Counted from the first letter of the stretch, positions 2,587-56,944 are shown. The stretch: DNA of 64,000 bases from Minisyncoccota bacterium (GCA_041651055.1 JBAZJW010000001.1:373325-437324), one strand, 5' to 3'. Translations and numbers: made by a program. The notes: generated from the letters alone by a model not told the origin.

Positions 2587-2952
2587 TTAGGACGTTCTTC
2601 GTTCTTCGTTAAATTTCTTAATAAATGCACTCAACATTTTCATAACATCTTCGAGTTTTAATGCAATCATATTAAAATCTTCATCAGCTATATACCCTAA
2701 TTTATGAGCCAACAAAAGTTGTGTTTCTACTTCTGCACCAGACCCATGTGAAATTTTTAAAAACTGAAGAAACTCCTTTTGCCCCCTTTTGCTTCCTTCA
2801 GAAATATTAGAGGGTATAGAAACTGCAGCCCTGCGAATCTGAGATGTTAAACCATATAATTCTTCTTTAGGAAAAGACTTAGTTGACTGATATATATCAA
2901 AACAAACATCAAAAGACTTTTTCCATACATCAAGATCTTTATACGAACTCAT
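2587..2952 (-). CDS. four-helix-bundle protein of the 23S rRNA intervening-sequence protein family
   Basis: 121 aa. DVWKKS...IPSNISEG...EFLQFLKISHGSGAEVETQLLLA matches the TIGR02436 / S23-ribosomal-like family. The gene is bracketed by inverted CGTTCTTCGTTAGG repeats, and its last 8 codons are encoded by the repeat. Confidence 0.7.
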   Translation of the reverse strand: MSSYKDLDVWKKSFDVCFDIYQSTKSFPKEELYGLTSQIRRAAVSIPSNISEGSKRGQKEFLQFLKISHGSGAEVETQLLLAHKLGYIADEDFNMIALKLEDVMKMLSAFIKKFNEERRTS

Positions 2953-4192: not shown

Positions 4193-4528
4193 TTAGCGAC
4201 GAGGTGTCGCAATGACCTCGTAGAAGCTCCCCGTCTCCGTCTTGCAACGAAAGACCTTGAAGAGCGACGCGTCGAGAGTGTTCACAACCTCAGTCACAGT
4301 GGAAGTGTATTTCCCACCACCGAGGTACAACGTATCTCCGACGGTGACACCAGGGAAATCGTTGATTTGTGCCGTGAGAACCCCCAAGCTATGCGCTTGG
4401 GTACTCGGATGGTAGGTCCGAGAGATCACGGCCGTCATACCTTTGGCGTGACGGTGTACTGGGTTTTTAACGATGCCCCTCGCATCGGGCAACACTTCCA
4501 GTGTTGCCATACGGTTACCGAAGACCAT
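4193..4528 (-). CDS. hypothetical protein in the GC-rich island
   Basis: 111-aa ORF with an AGGAG Shine-Dalgarno 7 nt upstream. Co-directional with, and 11 nt upstream of, the secreted protein gene. Confidence 0.45.
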   Translation of the reverse strand: MVFGNRMATLEVLPDARGIVKNPVHRHAKGMTAVISRTYHPSTQAHSLGVLTAQINDFPGVTVGDTLYLGGGKYTSTVTEVVNTLDASLFKVFRCKTETGSFYEVIATPRR

Positions 4529-4774
4529 TTTGGTGCTCCTAGTTGGTTATGGACCCAAGAAATTTGGGACCAAAAATAATATATCACAAATAAACTGAAA
4601 AGTCAAGTTTAAGATAGCATTGTTGGTCAAAAATACCTGGCGTACATTACGCCGGCGGCTTTTTTATTTGTATATCCATCTCTCAATAACTTGACATTTA
4701 CACTTTATATGATAGTGTAATAAACGAACATTACACGGGCGTGTGATGAATATATTGAAAAAAGGAAAAAGGAA

Positions 4775-5035
4775 ATGACAAAAACAACAGCATGGGAAAC
4801 CTTCACCTGGGCGATCGTGAGCGTCGCGATAGCCTACCTAGCTCTAGCTCTGGGAAGCACGATCACCCCAGACAAGGAACCTGTCCTCAAACTGATTGCA
4901 GGCCTCCTCGGATTGGCGGCCAGCGGAGCCGTCTGCTCCTACATCGTCAAGATGTTCGCCAGTGCCATTCGTGGTACACAGAAAAAGGAGCGCTCGAAAG
5001 ACGACCCCTCGATGCATGGCTGGGGGCCATATTGA
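4775..5035 (+). CDS. small membrane protein, 2 predicted TM helices
   Basis: 86 aa; WAIVSVAIAYLALALG and LIAGLLGLAASGAVCSYIV hydrophobic segments. GC-rich. Confidence 0.45.
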   Translation: MTKTTAWETFTWAIVSVAIAYLALALGSTITPDKEPVLKLIAGLLGLAASGAVCSYIVKMFASAIRGTQKKERSKDDPSMHGWGPY

Positions 5036-5061
5036 AACCAAAACCAACAAAGGAGACCGCC

Positions 5062-5262
5062 ATGAAGGCGTTCAAAGCTATTTTCCAGATCGGAATTAAC
5101 GGACTTTTTGTCTTTCTCTTCTACAAATGGGTGATAGAGCCTTTATGGCAATTCTCGCCACGGCTGACCGTTCTTTTTGCGCTTGCAACACTCTTCGTAT
5201 TCTTGCTTGCAACGAAAGAAGACGAAAGTCCTCACAACGACAACGCGCGGGCCGGACAGTAA
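5062..5262 (+). CDS. small membrane protein, 2 predicted TM helices
   Basis: 66 aa starting MKAFKAIFQIGINGLFVFLFY. Preceded by AACAAAGGAGACCGCC-ATG. Confidence 0.45.
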   Translation: MKAFKAIFQIGINGLFVFLFYKWVIEPLWQFSPRLTVLFALATLFVFLLATKEDESPHNDNARAGQ

Positions 5263-5295: not shown

Positions 5296-5326
5296 GCGCA
5301 TCACGCCGGCGGTTTTCTTATTTTTG
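5296..5326 (+). terminator. putative terminator: short GC hairpin plus T-run
   Basis: CACGCCGGCGG followed by TTTTCTTATTTTTGT. A near-identical module lies at 4648-4676. Confidence 0.4.
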
Positions 5327-5566
5327 TATTACTTTGTATTCATACTGTTATTCAAATTGAATATTGAATATTTGATTCATTAAATATTTTTGACCCCTAA
5401 CCCCTAACTGTTGACTCCTAACTGTATTTAAAGTAGTATTACTCCCATCTATTAATAGATAATCGTTCTGGCGTAATCCCCGACTTGTGTGTAGTAAACA
5501 ACAAGACGGAGCCCAGACCGCAAGGTTAGCCGCCTTTCGTGGGCGGCCATTTTTTTACCCAACTAT

Positions 5567-8304: not shown

Positions 8305-9639
8305 ATGAATGATGAAGTAAAAAAAGAAATAGCAAAAAGTGAGACGAAAGAAATAAAAAAAGAAACGCCTGTTTCTTTGAAAGGAATGGATGATCTTTTC
8401 GATGAAGACTACTACGCCTTCCAAGGTCTCTTTGAAAAGGCCCAAGAGGTCGCGGTGTACTATGGGTTCAAACCAATAGAAACCCCTCTTCTTGAGCAAG
8501 AAGAGGTCTTCGTTTCAGCTATCGGCGAAGGAACAGATATCATCGATAAAGAAATGTACACCTTCAAGACAAAAGGAGGTGAGCGTCTTGCTATTCGTCC
8601 AGAATATACCGCCGCTGTTATGCGCGCATACCTCGAGCACGGCATGCAAAATCTTTCACAGCCGATTCTCCTCTATTCATACGGACAAACCTTTCGCCAC
8701 GACAAGCCACAGCGCGGAAGATGGCGTCAGTTCAGACAATTCAACTTGGAAATTTTGGGTACAACAAAATCAATCGCTGATGCGCTGATTATTCGTACGC
8801 TCATGACTATTCTCGAAGAGTATGGATTCAAAGATCTCGTTATTGATATCAATTCAATGGGAGACAAAGAAACCCGTCCAGCGTTTATCAAAGAGCTCAC
8901 CAATTACTACAAGAAGCATCTCGAGACATTGTGTAAGGACTGTAATGAACGCATCAAAAATAATCCTCTTCGTCTACTCGACTGCAAGCAGCCACAGTGT
9001 CAGCCATTCAAAGAAAATGCACCATCATCGATTTCGTATCTTTCCAACGATGCTCGTAGTCACTTCAAGGAAGTGCTTCAGTACCTCGAAGAAATGGGTA
9101 TTCCGTATCGCGTAAATAATTCTCTTGTTCGTGGACAGAGCTATTACACACGCACAGTCTTTGAAGTTATCAAAGTTGACGTTGGTGAAGATGGAAAAGA
9201 AAAAGAAATCACTATCACAGGAGGAGGAAGATATGACAATCTCGCAAAGATGATGGGAAGCAAAAAGGATGTCCCTGCTGTCGGAACAGGTCTCAGTATG
9301 GAGCGTATTCGTATGTTCCCAGAATGTAAAGCCATCGCGCCGCGCATCATGAAGCCACCGAAAGTATATTTCATTCAGCTTGGGTTCGAAGCGAAGCTAA
9401 AGAGTCTCTGCATTATGGAAGTACTCCGCAAAGCTCGTATTCCAGTACACCAGTCGATCTCAAAAGACTCACTTGGTGCACAGTTAGCTAGTGCTGAAAA
9501 AATGGAAGTGCCTTACTGTATTATTTTCGGACAAAAAGAAGCAATGGATAATACGGTGATTGTGCGCAACATGTCAGTGCACTCACAAGATACCGTGAAG
9601 ATTGATGCTTTGAGTGATTATATTAAACACTTGAAATAG
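8305..9639 (+). CDS. hisS: histidine--tRNA ligase
   Basis: RPEYTAAVMRAY (motif 2 region) and GGGRYDNL (motif 3) of class II HisRS. The K/E-rich N-terminal 27 aa may not be translated; an alternative start is at 8386. Confidence 0.85.
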   Translation: MNDEVKKEIAKSETKEIKKETPVSLKGMDDLFDEDYYAFQGLFEKAQEVAVYYGFKPIETPLLEQEEVFVSAIGEGTDIIDKEMYTFKTKGGERLAIRPEYTAAVMRAYLEHGMQNLSQPILLYSYGQTFRHDKPQRGRWRQFRQFNLEILGTTKSIADALIIRTLMTILEEYGFKDLVIDINSMGDKETRPAFIKELTNYYKKHLETLCKDCNERIKNNPLRLLDCKQPQCQPFKENAPSSISYLSNDARSHFKEVLQYLEEMGIPYRVNNSLVRGQSYYTRTVFEVIKVDVGEDGKEKEITITGGGRYDNLAKMMGSKKDVPAVGTGLSMERIRMFPECKAIAPRIMKPPKVYFIQLGFEAKLKSLCIMEVLRKARIPVHQSISKDSLGAQLASAEKMEVPYCIIFGQKEAMDNTVIVRNMSVHSQDTVKIDALSDYIKHLK

Positions 9640-9666: not shown

Positions 9667-9703
9667 ACGAGCGGCGCCGAAGGCGCCGCTCGTATTTACT
9701 TTA
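9667..9703 (+). terminator. intrinsic terminator after hisS
   Basis: ACGAGCGGCGCC-GAAG-GCGCCGCTCGT hairpin followed by ATTTACTTTAT. Confidence 0.55.
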
Positions 9704-9750
9704 TACCCAAAGGTGATAGTATCTCAGTAAACCAACCAAAGGAGACCATC

Positions 9751-10251
9751 ATGGCCACCCCGCTCATTCAATACGTCGCGCAACCCAACGCTCGCGCTCA
9801 GAAACCAGAAGACACATGTCCCGCGTGTGGAAATCCACACGAAGAAGGAGAACCCCTCGTACCGTATCCAGTCACAGAAAAAGAAGCGGAACTCGTACTC
9901 CCAATTTTCCGGAATATAGGAGCAAAACTTCGTGTGGTTTTTGTTCCAGAACAAATTCCGAAATACCTCGCACGAGGTGTCAAAATCGAAAACGGCGCCG
10001 CTGTTTTTTCTGGGGATTTTCAAATGTTCGAAAACTCCAAGCCGTGTTTCAAGCTTTGGGCAAGTACAGAGGTCGAGGTCTTCAAAGAATTCAGATATGT
10101 GAGTGTTGATCTTGACTGGGACCCTGCAGACATTCTTTCCGTTGGATGGGCTTTTAATCCGAAAGACATCTACTGGAATTCCAAATGGACCGCTGAGGAT
10201 TTCCTTCGTGTCCACGGTCATAGAAACGGCCATCGCCAAAACAGTCAATGA
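9751..10251 (+). CDS. hypothetical protein, GC-rich orphan
   Basis: 166 aa. Strong SD ACCAACCAAAGGAGACCATC-ATG. ~52% GC versus ~40% for neighbours. The overlapping minus-strand ORF 9724..10296 is judged spurious. Confidence 0.5.
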   Translation: MATPLIQYVAQPNARAQKPEDTCPACGNPHEEGEPLVPYPVTEKEAELVLPIFRNIGAKLRVVFVPEQIPKYLARGVKIENGAAVFSGDFQMFENSKPCFKLWASTEVEVFKEFRYVSVDLDWDPADILSVGWAFNPKDIYWNSKWTAEDFLRVHGHRNGHRQNSQ

Positions 10252-10373: not shown

Positions 10374-10622
10374 ATGTCAAACGTAAACGTAGAAGTAAAA
10401 AAGAACCCGAGCGAAAACGCTCTTTCTCTTGTTCGTCGCTTTCAGAAGCGTGTTCAGGAATCAGGCATCCTTCCTCGTGTTCGTGGAATCCGTTACAGTG
10501 ATCGTCCACTCTCAGAATTAAAAACAAAACGTGCCAAGCTAAAGAAATTAAAGAATCTTGCAAAGTACGAACAGGACAAGAAAATGGGTAAGGTTGTGGA
10601 ACGAAAGAAAGGCCGCAGATAG
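10374..10622 (+). CDS. rpsU: 30S ribosomal protein S21
   Basis: MSNVNVEVKKNPSENALSLVRRFQKRVQESGILPRVRGIRYSDRPLSELKTKRAKLKKL matches the S21 family pattern (ALRRFKR...G.L.E.RRR..YEKP...RKR). Confidence 0.7.
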   Translation: MSNVNVEVKKNPSENALSLVRRFQKRVQESGILPRVRGIRYSDRPLSELKTKRAKLKKLKNLAKYEQDKKMGKVVERKKGRR

Positions 10623-10726: not shown

Positions 10727-11125
10727 ATGTCTATACTAGAAAAAAATAACTTAACAGTAATTCGTAAGAACGGAAAAATTCCCGCTCTTCCTTTTTTAGA
10801 TCTCAAAGAAAAAATTCTTGGGAAAAGCTACGACCTTACGATTGTTTTTTGTTCACCAGAAGAATCTCGTGAACGAAACAAAACGTATCGAGACAAAGAC
10901 TACCCGACGAATATTCTTTCATTCCCCCTTTCAGATACAGAAGGAGAAATATACATATCGCTCATAACAGCGAGACGTGATGCTCACACATTCGAAATGT
11001 CATACCAAAAATTCCTACATCTCCTTATCATCCACGGCATGCTTCATTTGAAAGGACACGATCATGGTAGTACAATGGAAGAGCTAGAAGATTCGTATGT
11101 ACGCAAATTCTTCGCGATAAACTAA
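10727..11125 (+). CDS. ybeY: rRNA maturation endoribonuclease YbeY
   Basis: HGMLHLKGHDH metal-binding motif (H..LHL.G.DH). Confidence 0.85.
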   Translation: MSILEKNNLTVIRKNGKIPALPFLDLKEKILGKSYDLTIVFCSPEESRERNKTYRDKDYPTNILSFPLSDTEGEIYISLITARRDAHTFEMSYQKFLHLLIIHGMLHLKGHDHGSTMEELEDSYVRKFFAIN

Positions 11126-36223: not shown

Positions 36224-36334
36224 AAGCAGAAAAACTATTAAAGAGAAGTTTTTTGGGTACTGATTAAGGTTGACATTAATCAGAATACATGCCATAGTTT
36301 TATTCGTAAGTTCAATAAAGAAAGGAGAGCAACT

Positions 36335-36820
36335 ATGTGCTTCAAGGGCTTGGTTACAGGTAGACTTCCTCGCGAGGTATATATCTCAGGTCTCGAAAAT
36401 TTCATCATCTCCACAGTCGACTTCGTTCTCAGAAGAGGTCTCCAGTTCTTTCTGATTAAACGAAAAGGTGGGGCTTTCTCTGGCGAATGGTTCGTCGCTG
36501 GCGGCCGCCAAAACCGTGGAGAGGAAGAATTGACGGCTCTCCACCGCATCGCCAAGCGTGAGCTTGGTGTAAACGAAAAAGATGTCGTCACCGTCAGATT
36601 CTCTCATTGCCAGGATGTATGTAATCCTGCCAGCAAAAATGATGAAGGATCTCTTCCTGAATGGCATTCGAAGTGGCACTTCTACGTGGTCGAAGTGACC
36701 CCTGATTTCAAGCTGAAGCTTGATGAAACCTCTAGCGAGGGGCAATGGTTCACAGAACTTCCAGTCGAAGGGGTCCCGGAGCCCGTCATTCGCGCTCTAA
36801 GAAAATCAGGAATGATTTAA
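36335..36820 (+). CDS. gmm: GDP-mannose mannosyl hydrolase-like Nudix enzyme
   Basis: VDFVLRRG.LQFFLIKRKGGAFSGEWFVAGGR...EELTALHRIAKRELG aligns with E. coli Gmm/WcaH (LDFIVEN..GEFLLGKR...GYWFVPGGR...ETLEAAFERLTMAELG). ~52% GC. Confidence 0.55.
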   Translation: MCFKGLVTGRLPREVYISGLENFIISTVDFVLRRGLQFFLIKRKGGAFSGEWFVAGGRQNRGEEELTALHRIAKRELGVNEKDVVTVRFSHCQDVCNPASKNDEGSLPEWHSKWHFYVVEVTPDFKLKLDETSSEGQWFTELPVEGVPEPVIRALRKSGMI

Positions 36821-45601: not shown

Positions 45602-46948
45602 CTATCTCCCAAACAACCCCTTAAACCATGCGACGATTCGGGTGTCTTTTTGTGTGTGGACAACTCGTGTGACAGATGTAGTGCTGGCGACGATAGTGGA
45701 TGTCGCAGCAGATGCGTGGGGCACTGTTTTCACTATAACCTTTTGATATACACGAGCAGGTGCTTGTATGAGAATGCTTTTTATCGGCATGGTCGTAGCA
45801 ATCGTCGTAGTCGCAGCACCCAACACCAACCCTTCATCTTTAATGTATTTCGTCACTTCTTCTTGATTCGGAAAAAGAATTTGAACAACCGTGCCAGACG
45901 AAATAGTACTACTTGCGAATCCCATCGCTACACCAGAAAAATGTGTTACACCACCGGCAGCGAGTAATGTGTTTTTTGGAAAAGGAAAAGCAGAACCATT
46001 TATCAAAAGTTTCCATTGAGAAAAATCTAAGTCGTACGGGTTCGGATTCGTAATATCTACATACGTGCCATATTTGCCAGAAGCAATAGCACTGATGGCA
46101 ATATCTGGAGGCACGACACGCACCGTCATACGACCTGTACCAGCCACGTATCCATTCGTACCTTCCACTTGCGCGACGTACCTGCCGGCATACGCATACC
46201 GATACTTTGTCGACGTGCCGACGGCTTGTCCCCCATCACCAAAGGCCCATGTGCATGTGAGTCCATCAATAGTTTTGCCAGCGCGCGTCATACCATACGT
46301 ACTGAATTCTGTTTCAGCACCAGCGACGACGGTTTTTTCAAACGGCATATACAAAATAATATCAGGCGATGGTGGAGACATTTGTGCGACGGTCACTTGA
46401 TGCTCTGTCGTTGTGGTCGCTGTCGTATCTGTCGGAGTCGTTGTGTCGACGACAGCTGGCGCACTATTTTCTGATCCCGGTGTCGGCGTCGTTTGAATAA
46501 AGCTTCCGTTCACACGTGATAAAGTCATACCCTCTTTTGCTGCCGTATAGGACGAAAGAATGTCTAAGGAGACACCGTTTAGTTTTATTTCAATCGATGT
46601 AACACCAGTGTTCACTAAACTTATAGAACTTTTAAAAAGTGAACCATTGTATAGTGGGTAGTCCTGCAAAAATTTCGTCACCCCACTTACGGTCGAAGCA
46701 ATAATCGCATACTCTCCCGCATTAAGCGTCGTACCCCCTGAAAGGGGTGTAGTCACGATTGCTGCACCTCCTTTTATGGAAATAGTAAGCGCAGAAATAT
46801 CCACCGGTACTGTCGTATCGTTATACAATTCCACCCACTCTCTCCCTCCATCATCTCCTGTCGGATTAGACATAATCTCACTTATCAAAAGCGCATGTGT
46901 ACTCATGGTGCCGCTCATAAAAAGTGAAAGGATGAGGAGTTTTTTCAT
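45602..46948 (-). CDS. secreted lamin-tail-domain (LTD) protein
   Basis: Signal peptide MKKLLILSLFMSGTMSTHA. Two LTD-like segments (LISEIMSNPTGDDGGREWVELYN...ISALTI and YVDITNPNPYDLDFSQWKLL) and a T-rich linker. Confidence 0.6.
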   Translation of the reverse strand: MKKLLILSLFMSGTMSTHALLISEIMSNPTGDDGGREWVELYNDTTVPVDISALTISIKGGAAIVTTPLSGGTTLNAGEYAIIASTVSGVTKFLQDYPLYNGSLFKSSISLVNTGVTSIEIKLNGVSLDILSSYTAAKEGMTLSRVNGSFIQTTPTPGSENSAPAVVDTTTPTDTTATTTTEHQVTVAQMSPPSPDIILYMPFEKTVVAGAETEFSTYGMTRAGKTIDGLTCTWAFGDGGQAVGTSTKYRYAYAGRYVAQVEGTNGYVAGTGRMTVRVVPPDIAISAIASGKYGTYVDITNPNPYDLDFSQWKLLINGSAFPFPKNTLLAAGGVTHFSGVAMGFASSTISSGTVVQILFPNQEEVTKYIKDEGLVLGAATTTIATTMPIKSILIQAPARVYQKVIVKTVPHASAATSTIVASTTSVTRVVHTQKDTRIVAWFKGLFGR

Positions 46949-46952
46949 AGTG

Positions 46953-48788
46953 TTATGACTCCTCTTCTATAAGTTTACGCAAAACTTCTTCGGCTATTTC
47001 TTTTTGCACACGCTTATTTTCTTCTACCACCGTTTCTTTCTTTGTATCATGCGTGCGATCTGTATTTTCTGTTATCTGTCGACTGTCAGCTGATGACTGT
47101 CTATTCTCTTCCATTGCTTTTGCTAGAGCTTCTTTGAGTGATAGCGCCGGCTTTTCATCAAAGGTTTTTGGATATTCTATGCGAGAACGTTCTTCAGGTA
47201 CACCTTTTGTTGGTTGGGTACGCACTTGCTCTTGTGGCACACGCCTCTCTTCCGTATGCTGACGAGGTCTATCTTCTTGATGGCCACCTCTTTGGCTATT
47301 TGCGTGTGAAGGAGTGTCTCTTCGTGGATCCTGACTTCTTTCTCCTTGTACGCTCCCTTTTCCATTATCTAATGGCCTACTTTCTGGTTGTCTTCGTGGT
47401 GCAGGTGCATCGTGTCGGATTTCGCGCACTTTCATATCTCGCTCATCTCGTGGTTTTCCTTCGTCTCTTTTTGTTTCAGCTTTTTCTATTGGTTTGTAGA
47501 AGGCATTAATTTCTTCTTCAACTTCAGCGATTGGTTTACCATAGCTTTTACGCGAATAGGCAATAACCTCATCACTAAATGAGCGTGCAGGCTTTTGTAT
47601 TGGACCAAGAGTGTGTGCTGAGAACGGCTTCGAGCCTTGCCCATCAATCATCAAGCGAAGATAAATTTGAAACGCGGAGAGGTTCACAATGTCGTCCAAA
47701 ATGAAATATGGCGCAAATTCTTTTTCAAAAATTTCTGCATCAGTCGCACCAACACGAAATACAATCATGGTACCTACGTTTCCAAAGACGGCCGCCTTTA
47801 CCTCGTCTGTCATTTGTTCGACATACTGATGTGCAACGGTGAGAGCAAGATTGTACTTACGCGCTTCCGAAAGAATGTTTGCAAAAGATTCATTGGCAAA
47901 GTTTTGGAATTCATCTACGTACACATAAAATGGTGGTAACTTTTCTAGTTCGTATGGACCGACATCGGCACGAGACATGGCTGCAAGGTATATTTTTGTA
48001 ATCAAGAGTGAACCGATCAAATTCGCATTTCCTTCTCCAACTTTTCCTTTAGAAAGGTTCACGATAATAATCTTTTTTGTATCCATCGCATCACGCAAAT
48101 CAATAGATGTTTTTTGTTGTCCGACAATATTTCTAATCAGTGGATTGCCGACGAATTGTCCAACTTTGTTCTGGATGGCAGGTGCAGCTTCTGCTGCGAA
48201 CTTCTCTGTATAGGACGCATATTCTTTTTCCCAAAAATCTTTCACCGTCGGATCTGTCACATTCGAAACAATAAACTTACGATACTCTTTATCTACCAAC
48301 ATTCTATTCACACCGAGCAGACTTTGATTATCATTTTCAAGAAGAGCGAGGATAATGTTCGTCAAAATATATTCCATACGCGCACTCCATGCATCAACCC
48401 AAATCTTTTTGAAAGCCGCCATGATACCGTTTGCCACCAAGTGACGCTTTTCTTTTTCTACTTTTTCAAGAACGTTCAATCCTATAGGACTATCGACATC
48501 AAACGGAGCAAAGTAGATAACATCTTTTACACGAGATTCTGGTATGTGGTCGAGCAACTTTTCAGCAAGTGATCCGTGTGGGTCAATAACACAAACACCT
48601 TCACCGTTGTTGATATCTTGAATAATGAGATTCTCGAGAAGGGTTGATTTTCCCATACCTGTCTTTCCAATGACATAAGTGTGGCGAGTGCGATCGTTTT
48701 CTTTGATGCCGAAAGTAAGCTGTTTATTTCTGTAATCAACCTTACCGATGTAGGTTACTTTTTCTTTATGCGGCTCTTGATCTGACAT
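46953..48788 (-). CDS. VirD4/TraG/TraD-like P-loop ATPase (TraM-recognition/TrwB family) with a ~170-aa disordered R/E/Q-rich C-tail
   Basis: Walker A VIGKTGMGKST, DEFQNF Walker B region, HQYVEQ motif. Tail from residue ~440 is low complexity. Confidence 0.55.
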   Translation of the reverse strand: MSDQEPHKEKVTYIGKVDYRNKQLTFGIKENDRTRHTYVIGKTGMGKSTLLENLIIQDINNGEGVCVIDPHGSLAEKLLDHIPESRVKDVIYFAPFDVDSPIGLNVLEKVEKEKRHLVANGIMAAFKKIWVDAWSARMEYILTNIILALLENDNQSLLGVNRMLVDKEYRKFIVSNVTDPTVKDFWEKEYASYTEKFAAEAAPAIQNKVGQFVGNPLIRNIVGQQKTSIDLRDAMDTKKIIIVNLSKGKVGEGNANLIGSLLITKIYLAAMSRADVGPYELEKLPPFYVYVDEFQNFANESFANILSEARKYNLALTVAHQYVEQMTDEVKAAVFGNVGTMIVFRVGATDAEIFEKEFAPYFILDDIVNLSAFQIYLRLMIDGQGSKPFSAHTLGPIQKPARSFSDEVIAYSRKSYGKPIAEVEEEINAFYKPIEKAETKRDEGKPRDERDMKVREIRHDAPAPRRQPESRPLDNGKGSVQGERSQDPRRDTPSHANSQRGGHQEDRPRQHTEERRVPQEQVRTQPTKGVPEERSRIEYPKTFDEKPALSLKEALAKAMEENRQSSADSRQITENTDRTHDTKKETVVEENKRVQKEIAEEVLRKLIEEES

Positions 48789-51243: not shown

Positions 51244-51334
51244 ATAAACCTGATACTACCACAAAAAAGAAAAACCGCGACAGCAAAAGCTGCGCGGCGG
51301 TAAAGGCGGTAAAAACCGCGAATGTCCTGGTCGA

Positions 51335-51625
51335 TTATTCGAACGAGTCGAACTGGTCGAGTGGGAACCAAAACACATGTTCCGGATGAAGGAATGGCAA
51401 AATGCCGAAATTCACAACGATGGCGTCCTGCAGTGTGCAAACCCCACAGACGACCAACCCTTCACGAAGAGGCAGCAGGGTTTTCCCGTTCGCCTCAACG
51501 ATCACAGAAGATACTGTGTGTGCCTTGAAAAAGACAACAGGTCTTCGCATTTCCGGTAAACGAAGAACATCGCCGACTTGAACACCTTGTTGGGTGGTGC
51601 TCGCCCCACTTCTCGATAGTTCCAT
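51335..51625 (-). CDS. hypothetical protein, GC-rich
   Basis: 96-aa ORF at ~50% GC. No family recognised. Confidence 0.35.
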   Translation of the reverse strand: MELSRSGASTTQQGVQVGDVLRLPEMRRPVVFFKAHTVSSVIVEANGKTLLPLREGLVVCGVCTLQDAIVVNFGILPFLHPEHVFWFPLDQFDSFE

Positions 51626-51752
51626 GATGGACTCTCCTTTTCTGGCGCCATTGTACTAGTGAATAAAGCCTAGGTCAATTATATGGTGTTTGAATATAAA
51701 AAAGCCGCCAGGATTCTGGCAGCAGAAAAGGATCACCTTCTAAGAGACATCT

Positions 51753-52163
51753 TCATCTCGCCGCACGGCATTTACCCCGGCGAGGAGAGATACGGTGACC
51801 GTATCTATTCATGACATGTTCCGGCAGGATAAGTCCTTGCCTGTTCCACTCACAAACAACGAGCCATTTTTTTATCCCTCTTTCTGTTATCACAGAGAGG
51901 AGAGAATACCGGAGCCCATTCGGCCCATACAAAAAAGTCAGGCCTTGCTTCGGTACCTGGAGGTTGACCTGCCTTCCCGTTCCCGCATAAGAGCAGTGAA
52001 CCGGAAACAAGTCTTCTTTGTCGGCGCAACGAGCGATCGTCACAATCTTCGGCCCTTCGCAAAGCTTTGCAGTTGCAAAGGCTTCAAACAAGATAATTTT
52101 AAAGGTCCCGTTTTCGGACATGCCGTGTATTGATGGCACATGTTTCAGTTCATCCATACCCAT
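51753..52163 (-). CDS. hypothetical protein, GC-rich
   Basis: 136-aa ORF at ~50% GC. No family recognised. Confidence 0.35.
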   Translation of the reverse strand: MGMDELKHVPSIHGMSENGTFKIILFEAFATAKLCEGPKIVTIARCADKEDLFPVHCSYAGTGRQVNLQVPKQGLTFLYGPNGLRYSLLSVITERGIKKWLVVCEWNRQGLILPEHVMNRYGHRISPRRGKCRAAR

Positions 52164-52330
52164 TTTTTACTCCTTTTCTTCTGGAAAACAAAATTCGCAC
52201 TAGAAGTATTTCAGGTGCGACACTTTCTAATAATAACACGAAAAGACACTTTTTGCAAGCCCTCTCTTTTTGTCCAGATCTTGCCTAGATTTCATAGTTT
52301 TTTCTTACATAGGGCCACCCTATGTAAGAA

Positions 52331-53404: not shown

Positions 53405-53607
53405 TTGGTGGTGCGCGGTCCTGGATTCTCCGACAAGTTTCGTCTCGTCGCCACTCAACGAACTCGCCGGCCGCCGCTCGTGGTTTTTCTTGCTAGAAAA
53501 ACATCACTGCGCCCTTTCGAATCCAGACGAAACATGTGCAGACATGTTTCTGACCGCGCACTAAAAAGAAAAACCCCTCCTCTGTCGAGGGGGATTTTTC
53601 TTTTTAG

Positions 53608-53680
53608 TGCGCGGTCCTGGATTCGAACCAGGGACCGCTCGAGTATCAGTCGAGTGCTCTACCAGCTGAGCTAACCGCGC
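53608..53680 (-). tRNA. tRNA-Ile (anticodon GAT)
   Basis: Reverse complement GCGCGGTTAGCTCAGCTGGTAGAGCACTCGACTGATACTCGAGCGGTCCCTGGTTCGAATCCAGGACCGCGCA; anticodon loop CTGATAC. A terminator hairpin (CCCCTC..GAGGGGG plus T-run) follows at 53560-53607. Confidence 0.85.
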
Positions 53681-53874
53681 TTTTTTATATTACTACCTAC
53701 CGACTTTGTGCACGTTTTAACAATCTACCACCTGTGTCAAAAGTTTGCTAACTTTTGACATCTTCGCGGCCGAGCCATCTCGAGCTAACCGCGCATATTT
53801 TATTTAACTACCCACACACTTCATACACGTTTGAACAATCTACCAGCTTGCGTCTTGTTCTTGCTGAACCAAGA

Positions 53875-53958
53875 CATCTTCGCGCAATTACACGTCTCGT
53901 GTCCTTCGTCTGGTGACTACGGACATCTTCGGTGCTCTTCGCACCTCGAGCTAACCGC
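53875..53958. repeat. 84-bp exact repeat, copy 2 (partner at 23119-23202)
   Basis: Identical sequence, in the same relative position upstream of a minus-strand tRNA. Confidence 0.95.
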
Positions 53959-54107
53959 ACTCTCCCAGATAAAACATAACTTTCAACGCACGTGTCACAA
54001 AATACTACCATAAAAATGACGAAGTAGAAAGCCCTTGGGCACGACTTGATTAATATGATATTTTGTTGTAGAAATAGACCACAGTTCATTCAACTAAGGA
54101 GACCACT

Positions 54108-54524
54108 ATGGCAACGGGATTCCAAAAATCAACGACCAAAACAAAGAGGGCTGCAACCGCAATAACACAGCAAAGCAATCAAACAATGGAGCACCACATT
54201 TGGTGCATACATACGGAGGACGATATAACCCAAAACGAAATCACTGTCTATTTCTCAAACAAAGGAGAGTCCGGCTTTAGCAAGACAAGAATTTTCTACA
54301 ACTGCAAAGAGCTTCATGTGTTCATGGTTTCATTTGCATTTGTCATGCACTTAAACAAAAATGAAGCTCAGAGGCCATACAAATTCACAGCCTATCATAA
54401 AGAAAGCAAAGGGAGACCTTGGGCGTTATGGAAAGGCGGAGAGAAGACAGTGCCGAAACAACTCAGAAAGGTTACACACCTCATCTTCGGCAAAGGTTCT
54501 CCTCTCAAAACAAAAAATGGATAG
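54108..54524 (+). CDS. hypothetical protein
   Basis: 138 aa. Strong SD CTAAGGAGACCACT-ATG. Sits between the 16S and tRNA-Ile genes on the opposite strand. Confidence 0.45.
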   Translation: MATGFQKSTTKTKRAATAITQQSNQTMEHHIWCIHTEDDITQNEITVYFSNKGESGFSKTRIFYNCKELHVFMVSFAFVMHLNKNEAQRPYKFTAYHKESKGRPWALWKGGEKTVPKQLRKVTHLIFGKGSPLKTKNG

Positions 54525-54799
54525 GCAAGAACGGAGAAAGCCGGATCGCAATGACGCGTCCGGCTTTTATATTAGTTTACACTAATACATATCGCAAGTA
54601 TTCAAACTATGAGGGTTCATAATTAAGATACTTCTGATATCTATTAAGGAAAACATCTTTCTACACAAAGACAAGGGTAGGCCACGTTTTTTGTAGTGAT
54701 TGTTTTATACATTACTAACATTGTGCTTTCTATTGATCTTTCTTTTGTCACACTCTAGCGCTTGCGCGACTTTTGTTACATTTCGTAGTAACACGAACT

Positions 54800-56633
<1,834 letters not shown>

Positions 56634-56944
56634 ATTTAATAGAGTGTGACAAAAGAAAAAACAAAAAAATGCACAATGTTTATGTAATGTATTGTGAAGC
56701 GTCACTTCAGTTCTTTTTTATGTTTAGAATTTCTAAAACAAAAAAGGAGCTGAACAGCTTCTATTAAAATTTCAAATGACTACAATTACTGCTCACTGCT
56801 TATGAGTAAGAAGTAGGACTATTCTATACTGTGCAGCACGTAAAGTCAAGCTTCTAATCAACAACACAAGCCATAACAGACAAACTTTTACAATATCCAC
56901 AGATATGCTTGCCATTTAAGGCTATTTTGATTAAACTCGTAGCA

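Follow-up and report, generated by a model that had tools for sequence, protein, structure and literature searches.

A 64,000-nucleotide stretch of DNA from a Minisyncoccota bacterium (GCA_041651055.1 JBAZJW010000001.1:373325-437324), referred to here as the window, was analysed for a short leader that resembles a Shine-Dalgarno (SD) sequence and precedes three genes with unrelated products. The 9-mer AAGGAGACC occurs exactly three times when both strands of the window are counted, compared with 0.41 expected, and none of 100 dinucleotide shuffles gave three copies. All three copies are on the plus strand, and each lies 3-4 nt upstream of an ATG that opens an open reading frame (ORF). The NCBI annotation has the same starts: WC444_02005 (66 aa), WC444_02030 (166 aa, ORF166) and WC444_02265 (138 aa, ORF138). 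An earlier reading of this DNA, the original prediction, had described near-identical leaders before 5062, 9751 and 54108, and they are present as quoted.

The leaders of sites 1 and 2 have about 18 of 19 nt in common with one gap, AAACCAAC[-/C]AAAGGAGACC. Measured from its 3' end, GGAG stands 6 nt away from the ATG at sites 1, 2 and 3 and 6-10 nt away in six related leaders. Five window leaders have in common AAC-N-(A)AGGAG-(A/C)(A/G)CC. Close variants of the shared leader stand before the gene at 4528 on the minus strand (AACCAACTAGGAGCACC) and before the gene at 36335 (AAAGGAGAGC), and three or four further leaders carry plainer AAAGGAG- or GAGGAG-type motifs (Table 1).

Comparison of the three loci found nothing in common outside the leader. 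Homologue searches with the three proteins returned essentially self-matches and one ORF166 ortholog with 48% identity, and no Pfam, PHROG or NCBIfam family was matched, in agreement with their earlier description as unrelated proteins of unknown function. The description of the genes as GC-rich holds relative to the window mean of about 0.41 (0.47, 0.48 and 0.42) but not in absolute terms.

At site 1, the leader lies inside a unit of two small membrane protein genes, and the 86-aa product upstream is a clean two-helix membrane protein. One gene-calling pipeline reported a 156-aa ORF here and two others reported 86 + 66 aa; the 156-aa alternative is out of frame and translates into arginine-rich junk, and the 66-aa reading (5062-5262) is correct. 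The unit is bracketed by a terminator-like direct repeat. Since the first copy (4645-4675) has no upstream gene on its strand to terminate, the repeat pair suggests an insertion or duplication boundary. This bracket suits the proposal of a common source, or of a cassette with its own ribosome-binding site (RBS), but the proposal does not hold in general: two of the genes are inherited vertically, as described below, and the loci share the leader alone. Compared with an integron-like mobile cassette, the loci have no shared recombination sites and no nearby integrase (none was found among the Pfam matches of the genes neighbouring the three leaders), and flanking repeats occur only at site 1. 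As for patchy presence, ORF166 and the gene in the 16S-tRNA-Ile spacer (ORF138 in the window) are syntenic in relatives, and the slot between MurB and TP_methylase holds non-alignable ORFs in each genome.

Leaderless default and the SD-led minority

The window gene set consisted of long non-overlapping ORFs, cross-checked with gene calls made independently on two further assemblies of this genome. A TANNNT box ends 5-10 nt before the ATG in 30 of 60 window genes, compared with 11 at a control offset, and a slightly wider range gives 35 of 71; in all, about half of the genes have the box 4-12 nt before the ATG. Housekeeping genes had been said to appear leaderless, and these counts bear that out. 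The box, often TGnTATACT, most often ends 6-7 nt before the ATG. Because genes that begin a few nucleotides after the previous stop also have a box of their own, the default is leaderless expression with one promoter per gene, an architecture that would imply largely monocistronic leaderless mRNAs.

A 5-mer SD precedes the start of six of the 60 genes (10%), compared with one at the control offset. A further ~15 kb of sequence flanking the window in this genome brought 16 more genes, none of them SD-led, and manual curation including the flanks gives a total of about 9 SD-led genes among 80. The motif is therefore not the organism's standard SD; had it been, the original prediction would have been refuted on its own terms. 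That it is an ordinary SD, or a product of chance, has in our judgement a probability close to nil: AAGGAG is the textbook SD core at canonical spacing, but it stands before about 10% of genes in a genome with no anti-SD, and the three copies found against 0.41 expected are all correctly placed.

The SD-led genes form a distinct class. Their mean GC content is 0.486, compared with 0.414 for other window genes (Mann-Whitney p=0.002), and their GC content at third codon positions (GC3) is 0.51, compared with 0.37-0.41. Small genes prevail in this class, which consists of orphan or accessory genes, including a NUDIX protein, a surface protein with LTD/PKD domains and small membrane proteins. No TANNNT box lies near the ATG of the three AAGGAGACC genes or of the other SD-led genes, whose promoters are of the sigma-70 type and lie 25-45 nt upstream unless the gene is internal to an operon. 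The promoter of leader 3, which was read by eye, is orthologous to TTGACA-17-TAGTAT/TAGGAT in the relatives L126 and L127. The initiation regions of SD-led genes are weakly structured, with the motif mostly unpaired.

Counting AGGAG-N-ATG without gene calling was swamped by motif copies inside coding sequence. A perfect canonical extended SD (AAAGGAGGTG[A]) was also seen twice inside coding regions, at 8573-8583 (+) in HisRS and at 46763-46775 (-) in the LTD/PKD gene, above the 10-mer expectation. This fits a genome without an anti-SD in which internal SD-like sequences are not avoided.

A 16S rRNA tail without CCUCC

The covariance-model alignment of the 16S 3' end reads GGAUUAAUUCAAUG in the window, compared with the consensus GGAUcACCUCCUUu, and no CCUCC is present within 70 nt. 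The comparison with the 16S 3' end that the original prediction had proposed was made in this way on the window's own 16S rRNA. Relatives were collected from representative genomes using a helix-45 pattern that stops before the tail, which gave 120 loci (designated here by L numbers), almost all from Parcubacteria-type Patescibacteria. CCUCC is missing from 105 of these, 12 have the canonical CACCTCCTTTCT and 3 are ambiguous; the 12 loci that keep CACCUCCUUUCU are Uhrbacteria-type and others.

The commonest replacement of the anti-SD is a small hairpin directly after helix 45 (UUCA..UGAA, CUCA..UGAG or UUCC..GGAA). With the two arms in register, 90% of cells are paired; sliding the partner lowers this to 5-58%. 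Replacement of U-A by C-G provides a compensatory change. As this replacement hairpin is conserved across related loci, loss of the anti-SD is a trait of the lineage, and it has already been published: Tsurumaki et al. (2022, RNA 28:1041, PMC9297842) observed the CCTCCT motif in just 48% of the Parcubacteria, and absence of ribosomal protein uL1 is reported to overlap with the loss. The window's genome, a metagenome-assembled one that NCBI places in Candidatus Paceibacterota, belongs to the Parcubacteria without an anti-SD described in that study: its 16S rRNA has no CCUCCU after helix 45, and a general SD is lacking. Minisyncoccus archaeiphilus (L045, NZ_AP038758.1), the one cultured clade member in the set, has no anti-SD (tail CAUUUAUUUAUAUUUUG) and carries aaaAGGAGGatattATG before the SAICAR synthetase gene (purC).

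An intron or insertion at the 16S 3' end, which would leave CCUCC on a downstream exon, was considered because site 3 reads GGTCTCCTTA in reverse complement. It was rejected: the tail lacking the anti-SD is conserved in about 105 genomes, and site 3 belongs to a real antisense gene that has a promoter and terminator of its own and orthologs in relatives.

Several further features of this 16S gene were noted. The first ~155 nt past its annotated end (54738-54892, -) are 95-96% conserved in L098 and L125-L127, like the 16S itself. One hairpin in this stretch has the loop AUCCUUAAA (~54802-54818), and its stem shows covariation in L044. Maturation may leave the 16S with a 3' end far past helix 45. 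Complementarity between the 5' leader (56640-56688) and more distal parts of the trailer resembles a processing stem, and a second 16S insertion of 75 nt is present near model position 80 (~56480-56560, -).

Retention and possible reading of the purine core

The relatives without an anti-SD (105 loci, 653 ORFs) contain a similar minority. Strong SD 6-mers at the right spacing precede 28 of the 653 genes, compared with a mean of 6.8 at five control offsets. When the window's own genes are included (728 ORFs), the 3' end of GGAG shows a sharp peak 5-10 nt upstream of the ATG that is highest at 6-7 nt (47 occurrences, compared with a background of ~1.7 per position). SD-led genes of the relatives are GC-richer than their own neighbours by 3.9 points (24 of 28 positive, Wilcoxon p=2e-4) and somewhat shorter, and one of the 28 has the leaderless box, compared with 201 of the 625 others. 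Among their proteins of at least 95 aa, 12 of 20 match no Pfam family; the rest comprise purC/purN/purQ-type enzymes, ribulose-phosphate epimerase, NYN, NUDIX, BNR and Gly-zipper proteins, and no core information-processing gene is among the 20. The proposal of a shared module on compositionally foreign genes is consistent with these data to the extent that SD-led genes, in the window and in relatives alike, stand apart in composition and are orphan or accessory.

This pattern is also what would be expected if the SD-led genes had been acquired horizontally from donors bearing an anti-SD (bacteria, mobile elements or phages) and their SDs were functionless, slowly decaying relics. We consider this explanation, the main rival to the reading preferred below, rather unlikely. 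It would account for the higher GC content in both data sets, for the orphan and accessory content, for the position of the genes in variable islets between conserved genes and for the duplicated terminator that flanks the site 1 unit. In addition, many motifs of the relatives extend as the canonical GGAGGTGAT, the complement of a tail that is absent from those genomes.

Orthologous leaders argue against relics as a general account. The ORF166 ortholog, on contig L121, lies in the same order (HisRS / ORF / bS21 / YbeY), and the flanking bS21 and YbeY proteins are 73% and 76% identical between L121 and the window. The L121 genome is much GC-richer, and the GC3 of ORF166 follows its host (0.61 in L121 and 0.44 in the window), so that ORF166 is a long-term resident in both lineages. 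Its L121 leader has GAGGAG 7 nt before the ATG and a promoter, TTGATT-17-TAGAGT, and the rest of the leader is not alignable; this old resident still has (A/G)AGGAG at the same spacing.

The antisense gene in the 16S-tRNA-Ile spacer provides a second case. It has homologues in L126 and L127 (~96% 16S identity) and in L044, which are 33-38% identical among those three. The window ORF138 is weakly related to them (E 2e-4 to 2e-3), and identity across the family is 22-38%. The family is inherited next to the 16S gene in four related species. The orthologous promoters follow TTGACA/TTGATT-17-TAG[T/G/A]A[T/A], and the motifs before the start are AAGGAGACC (window), GGGAG (L127), AAGGAGAAGGAG (L126) and GAGGA (L044), all keeping the core despite the low protein identity.

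In genomes without an anti-SD, GGAG or GAGG ends 4-8 nt before the ATG at a base rate of 6.9%, compared with 2.7% at control offsets. All four orthologous leaders keep the core, for which the chance probability at this base rate is ~2e-5. The GGAG/GAGG core therefore looks selected; conservation does not reach the ACC extension or the AACCAAC tract. The exact AAGGAGACC has only four copies in ~805 kb of relatives and none upstream of a start, so the extended leader is specific to this genome. The likeliest origin of the long identity AACCAAC...GGAGACC is that a single initiation region was copied between genes that are young or evolve fast, or that these leaders converged on a local optimum. 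Independent imports would not be expected to leave 9-19 nt in common among three unrelated genes. The ACC extension also misfits a canonical donor tail: a donor lineage with ...GUCUCCUU at the tail position had no match in a metagenomic 16S scan, whose gap range covered the canonical tail position only.

The gap between MurB and TP_methylase is a variable islet (window 51250-52330, L044 4190-5060, L098 800-1900) with different small SD-led ORFs in each genome. Homology among these ORFs in the window, L044 and L098 was not demonstrable (best E=0.04), and they are either extremely fast-evolving genes or independent gains.

The extent of the likeness among the leaders at 5062, 9751 and 4528(-), well past the SD core, could instead point to a shared mRNA operator, a 17-20-nt block AACCAAC-N-AAGGAGACC through which one trans-acting regulator, either a small RNA or an RNA-binding protein (for instance one recognising GGA as CsrA does), would control a small regulon of orphan genes, with the resemblance to an SD being secondary. 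The extended block is genome-specific, as a regulon signal could be, and some leaders have paired GGA motifs (AAGGAAAAAGGAA before 4775, AAGGAGAAGGAG in L126). However, the clade-wide GGAG peak at SD spacing is broader than one regulon, and neither kind of regulator was found: no CsrA homologue in ~80 kb of this genome or ~0.8 Mb of relatives, an incomplete sampling, and no RNA complementary to the leader block in the window. An operator is, in our view, improbable.

The 16S rRNA was searched for a pairing partner of the motif. Nothing in the tail of the window 16S is able to pair with it. A displaced anti-SD after the mini-hairpin, a possibility prompted by L005, L047, L079 and L084, was rejected, as it occurs in 7 of 112 tails, no more than by chance. 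Across the 16S body of the sequences without an anti-SD, the share with CUCC at any one position never exceeds 21%. A "neo-SD" complementary to the new tail GGAUUAAUUC is not enriched. Leaders match their own 16S trailer over 5.54 nt, compared with 5.22 nt for other trailers (p=0.02); these matches are scattered and mostly outside the SD core, and co-evolution of leader and trailer was rejected.

The best 16S duplex for AAAGGAGACC lies in an expansion of the helix 40 loop, where the leaders could pair with CGGUCUCCU as a species-specific substitute for the tail; the same role could fall to another rRNA segment. This duplex has a free energy of -14.5 kcal/mol, compared with -8.8 for the next site and with a mean of -10.0 and a best value of -13.1 for 30 shuffles, and with site 1 it forms nine pairs without interruption. 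Like the ACC extension, the expansion is genome-specific, and it also has an unpaired CCCUCC. Such a cryptic anti-SD nevertheless appears very improbable. The segment is buried in a very stable stem (the expansion folds at -107 kcal/mol, z -10.6), the chance probability of the match is only ~0.03-0.05 for one of several candidate partners tried, and no CUCC is conserved anywhere in 16S rRNAs without an anti-SD. The expansion is hypervariable, with 117-219 nt of unrelated AT-rich repeats at 95-96% 16S identity and only the base CCGTAATTTG...AAATTACGG in common; the versions in L098 and L125-L127 are unrelated AT-rich hairpins without CUCC, yet SD-like leaders are kept there. As neither CGGUCUCCU nor CCCUCC is conserved in relatives, the match is probably coincidental. 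Insertions in rRNAs of the candidate phyla radiation were reportedly found by Brown et al. in 2015 to be removed from the mature rRNA, which also counts against this explanation.

The reading that we prefer, and to which we give about an even chance, is that the purine core is a selected initiation or control element for leadered accessory mRNAs that is read without classical SD:anti-SD pairing. In this scheme, AAAGGAGACC-N3/4-ATG would be an SD-type element in the short 5' untranslated region (UTR), or in the intercistronic gap, of a leadered minority of mRNAs. Its core would be kept by selection because it promotes or controls initiation on mRNAs that are barred from the leaderless route. 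As the 16S rRNA has no anti-SD, a selected core must be read without that pairing, for example by a ribosomal or ribosome-associated protein; alternatively, it may simply be part of an open A/C- and purine-rich loading region. The positional peak and the retention in orthologs would give indirect support to a role of the motif in promoting 30S binding or initiation. A more specific possibility, which we put forward tentatively, is that ribosomes of Parcubacteria without an anti-SD recognise GGAG at the canonical distance through a reader other than the 16S 3' tail, either a protein or another rRNA segment, and that this would constitute a second, SD-like initiation route for leadered, fast-evolving accessory genes beside the default leaderless translation. 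Selection on the core and the relic explanation may be partly compatible, with genes foreign in origin whose element is kept because it works.

Several points weigh against a selected core. The evidence from orthologs consists of only four leaders; the organism of L121 enters it by its leader alone, its 16S not being seen, and the leader of the spacer gene overlaps the pre-rRNA spacer and is perhaps constrained for other reasons. GC-richer surroundings raise the chance frequency of GGAG, gene starts in relatives came from a crude ORF caller, and the sequence covered for this genome amounts to ~80 kb of 775 kb. All searches for an RNA partner were negative, no reader was identified, and no mechanism is known for reading GGAG at SD spacing without an anti-SD. 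Amin et al. (2018, PMC6107228) found organisms without an anti-SD to be generally devoid of an SD, and according to them variant SD/anti-SD pairs are not known.

Compared with the canonical SD of the Firmicutes type (AAAGGAGG, 5-9 nt spacing), the element is alike in its AAAGGAG core, its 6-7 nt to the ATG, its short 5' UTR or intercistronic gap and its unstructured context. It differs in having no cognate CCUCC, in continuing as ACC rather than GTGA, and in preceding ~10% of genes, all accessory or orphan. The SD:anti-SD duplex is the textbook means of bacterial start-site selection, and where the anti-SD has been lost, SDs are usually assumed not to matter. For bacteria lacking an anti-SD, Lim et al. 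are said to have reported in 2012 that SD helices are not formed and SDs are absent. In Bacteroidia, according to what Jha et al. in 2021 and McNutt et al. in 2023 reportedly described, the anti-SD is sequestered and most genes have no SD, while a few (notably rpsU, encoding bS21) keep a strong SD for regulation. Bacteroidia would be the nearest functional analogy, with a mostly SD-independent genome and a small special class of SD-bearing genes, and one SD-led gene here lies directly upstream of bS21; in contrast, their anti-SD exists and is unmasked in ribosomes without bS21, whereas here it is gone. Deinococcus and Actinobacteria are dominated by leaderless genes: most genes have a -10 box 6-7 nt upstream of the ATG, and SD sites occur on leadered or internal genes. 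These lineages differ in keeping the canonical anti-SD, so that their minority SDs have a known reader. Studies of bacteria without an anti-SD conclude that there are no SD helices and no SDs (PMC9297842, PMC6107228), whereas here a minority SD-like class persists and appears selected. No account of a conserved minority SD-like class in a clade without an anti-SD was found in the searchable literature, which is incomplete.

If selection maintains GGAG, either the SD motif has a function independent of the anti-SD or these ribosomes have an unrecognised substitute for it. Both options can be put to a direct test in the cultured Minisyncoccus archaeiphilus, whose purC gene is preceded by such a leader. 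If the motifs should instead be relics, they would serve as a convenient label for genes newly acquired by Parcubacteria. Gene prediction that weighs SD motifs will handle the leaderless and SD-led classes differently in these genomes.

Mapped features and neighbouring genes

Table 1. Leaders, genes and RNA features of the window (positions counted from its first nucleotide)
Feature	Position	Strand	Remarks
AAGGAGACC, site 1	5050-5058	+	ATG at 5062
AAGGAGACC, site 2	9739-9747	+	ATG at 9751
AAGGAGACC, site 3	54096-54104	+	ATG at 54108
Leader 1, AACCAAAACCAACAAAGGAGACCgccATG	5036..5064	+	In the 26 nt separating the stop of the 86-aa gene (5035) from the 66-aa gene; without own promoter box
Leader 2, ~22 nt, AAACCAACCAAAGGAGACCatcATG	9714..9753	+	Extended -10 box TGaTAGTAT at 9714-9722
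Leader 3, ~27 nt, ...GTTCATTCAActAAGGAGACCactATG	54046..54110	+	TTGATT (54046-54051), 17-nt spacer, TAGAAA (54069-54074)
Related leader, 111-aa gene, AACCAACTAGGAGCACCaaaATG	4526..4606	-	Promoter TTGACT-17-TATATT (4606-4578), 5' hairpin; ATG at 4528
Related leader, NUDIX gene, gAAAGGAGAGCaactATG	36318..36337	+	
SD-like leader, 96-aa orphan, AAAAGGAGAGTCCatcATG	51625..51648	-	
SD-like leader, 136-aa orphan, AAAAGGAGTaaaaaATG	52163..52183	-	
Weaker SD-like leader, LTD/PKD surface protein, gAGGAGtcataacactATG	46948..46970	-	
Two-gene unit, small membrane proteins	4775..5262	+	86 aa (4775-5035; leader AAGGAAAAAGGAAATG) + 66 aa (5062-5262)
31-nt direct repeat, 84% identical, both copies terminator-like	4645-4675 and 5299-5329	+	Brackets the 86-aa + 66-aa unit
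ORF166 (WC444_02030), orphan, N-terminal CPxCG motif	9751..10251	+	Between HisRS and bS21 (~10374-10622); YbeY at 10727-11125
ORF138 (WC444_02265)	54108..54524	+	Antisense in 16S-tRNA-Ile spacer; own terminator hairpin ~54538-54567
16S rRNA gene, 1748 nt	54893..56640	-	Tail after helix 45 GGAU-UAAUUCAAUGUGAAAUUG, no CCUCC
Small hairpin UUCA-AUG-UGAA at anti-SD position	54876..54902	-	Conserved across the clade, compensatory changes
Helix 40 expansion of 16S, 217 nt	55255..55471	-	Contains CGGUCUCCU, 8-9-nt complement of AGGAGACC(G), stem-buried; plus unpaired CCCUCC
tRNA-Ile(GAT)	53607..53680	-	1.2 kb downstream of 16S; no 23S follows

The HisRS terminator hairpin (9670-9699) lies upstream of leader 2. 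On the other side of ORF166, the ORF annotated as a 124-aa "bS21" has its probable start at an internal Met (10374) preceded by a TAGAAT box; bS21 has a near-leaderless promoter, with TAGAAT 10 nt before the ATG, and no SD. Both bS21 and YbeY act at the 16S 3' end. The 16S-tRNA-Ile spacer (53681-54892) contains direct repeats of 42 nt and 17 nt (53692-53848, 53776-53958).

Beside gyrA, a 121-aa protein at 2587-2952 (-) matches the Pfam family 23S_rRNA_IVP (bAvd-like four-helix bundle), whose members are usually encoded in 23S rRNA intervening sequences or diversity-generating retroelements. In the flanks of the same genome, an AIPR abortive-infection gene of low GC content (0.33) lies just before the window start (L122 13442-15055), and a nitroreductase and YcaO pair with small adjacent ORFs, possibly a cluster for ribosomally synthesized and post-translationally modified peptides, lies ~3-6 kb past the window end (L124 2015-4240).

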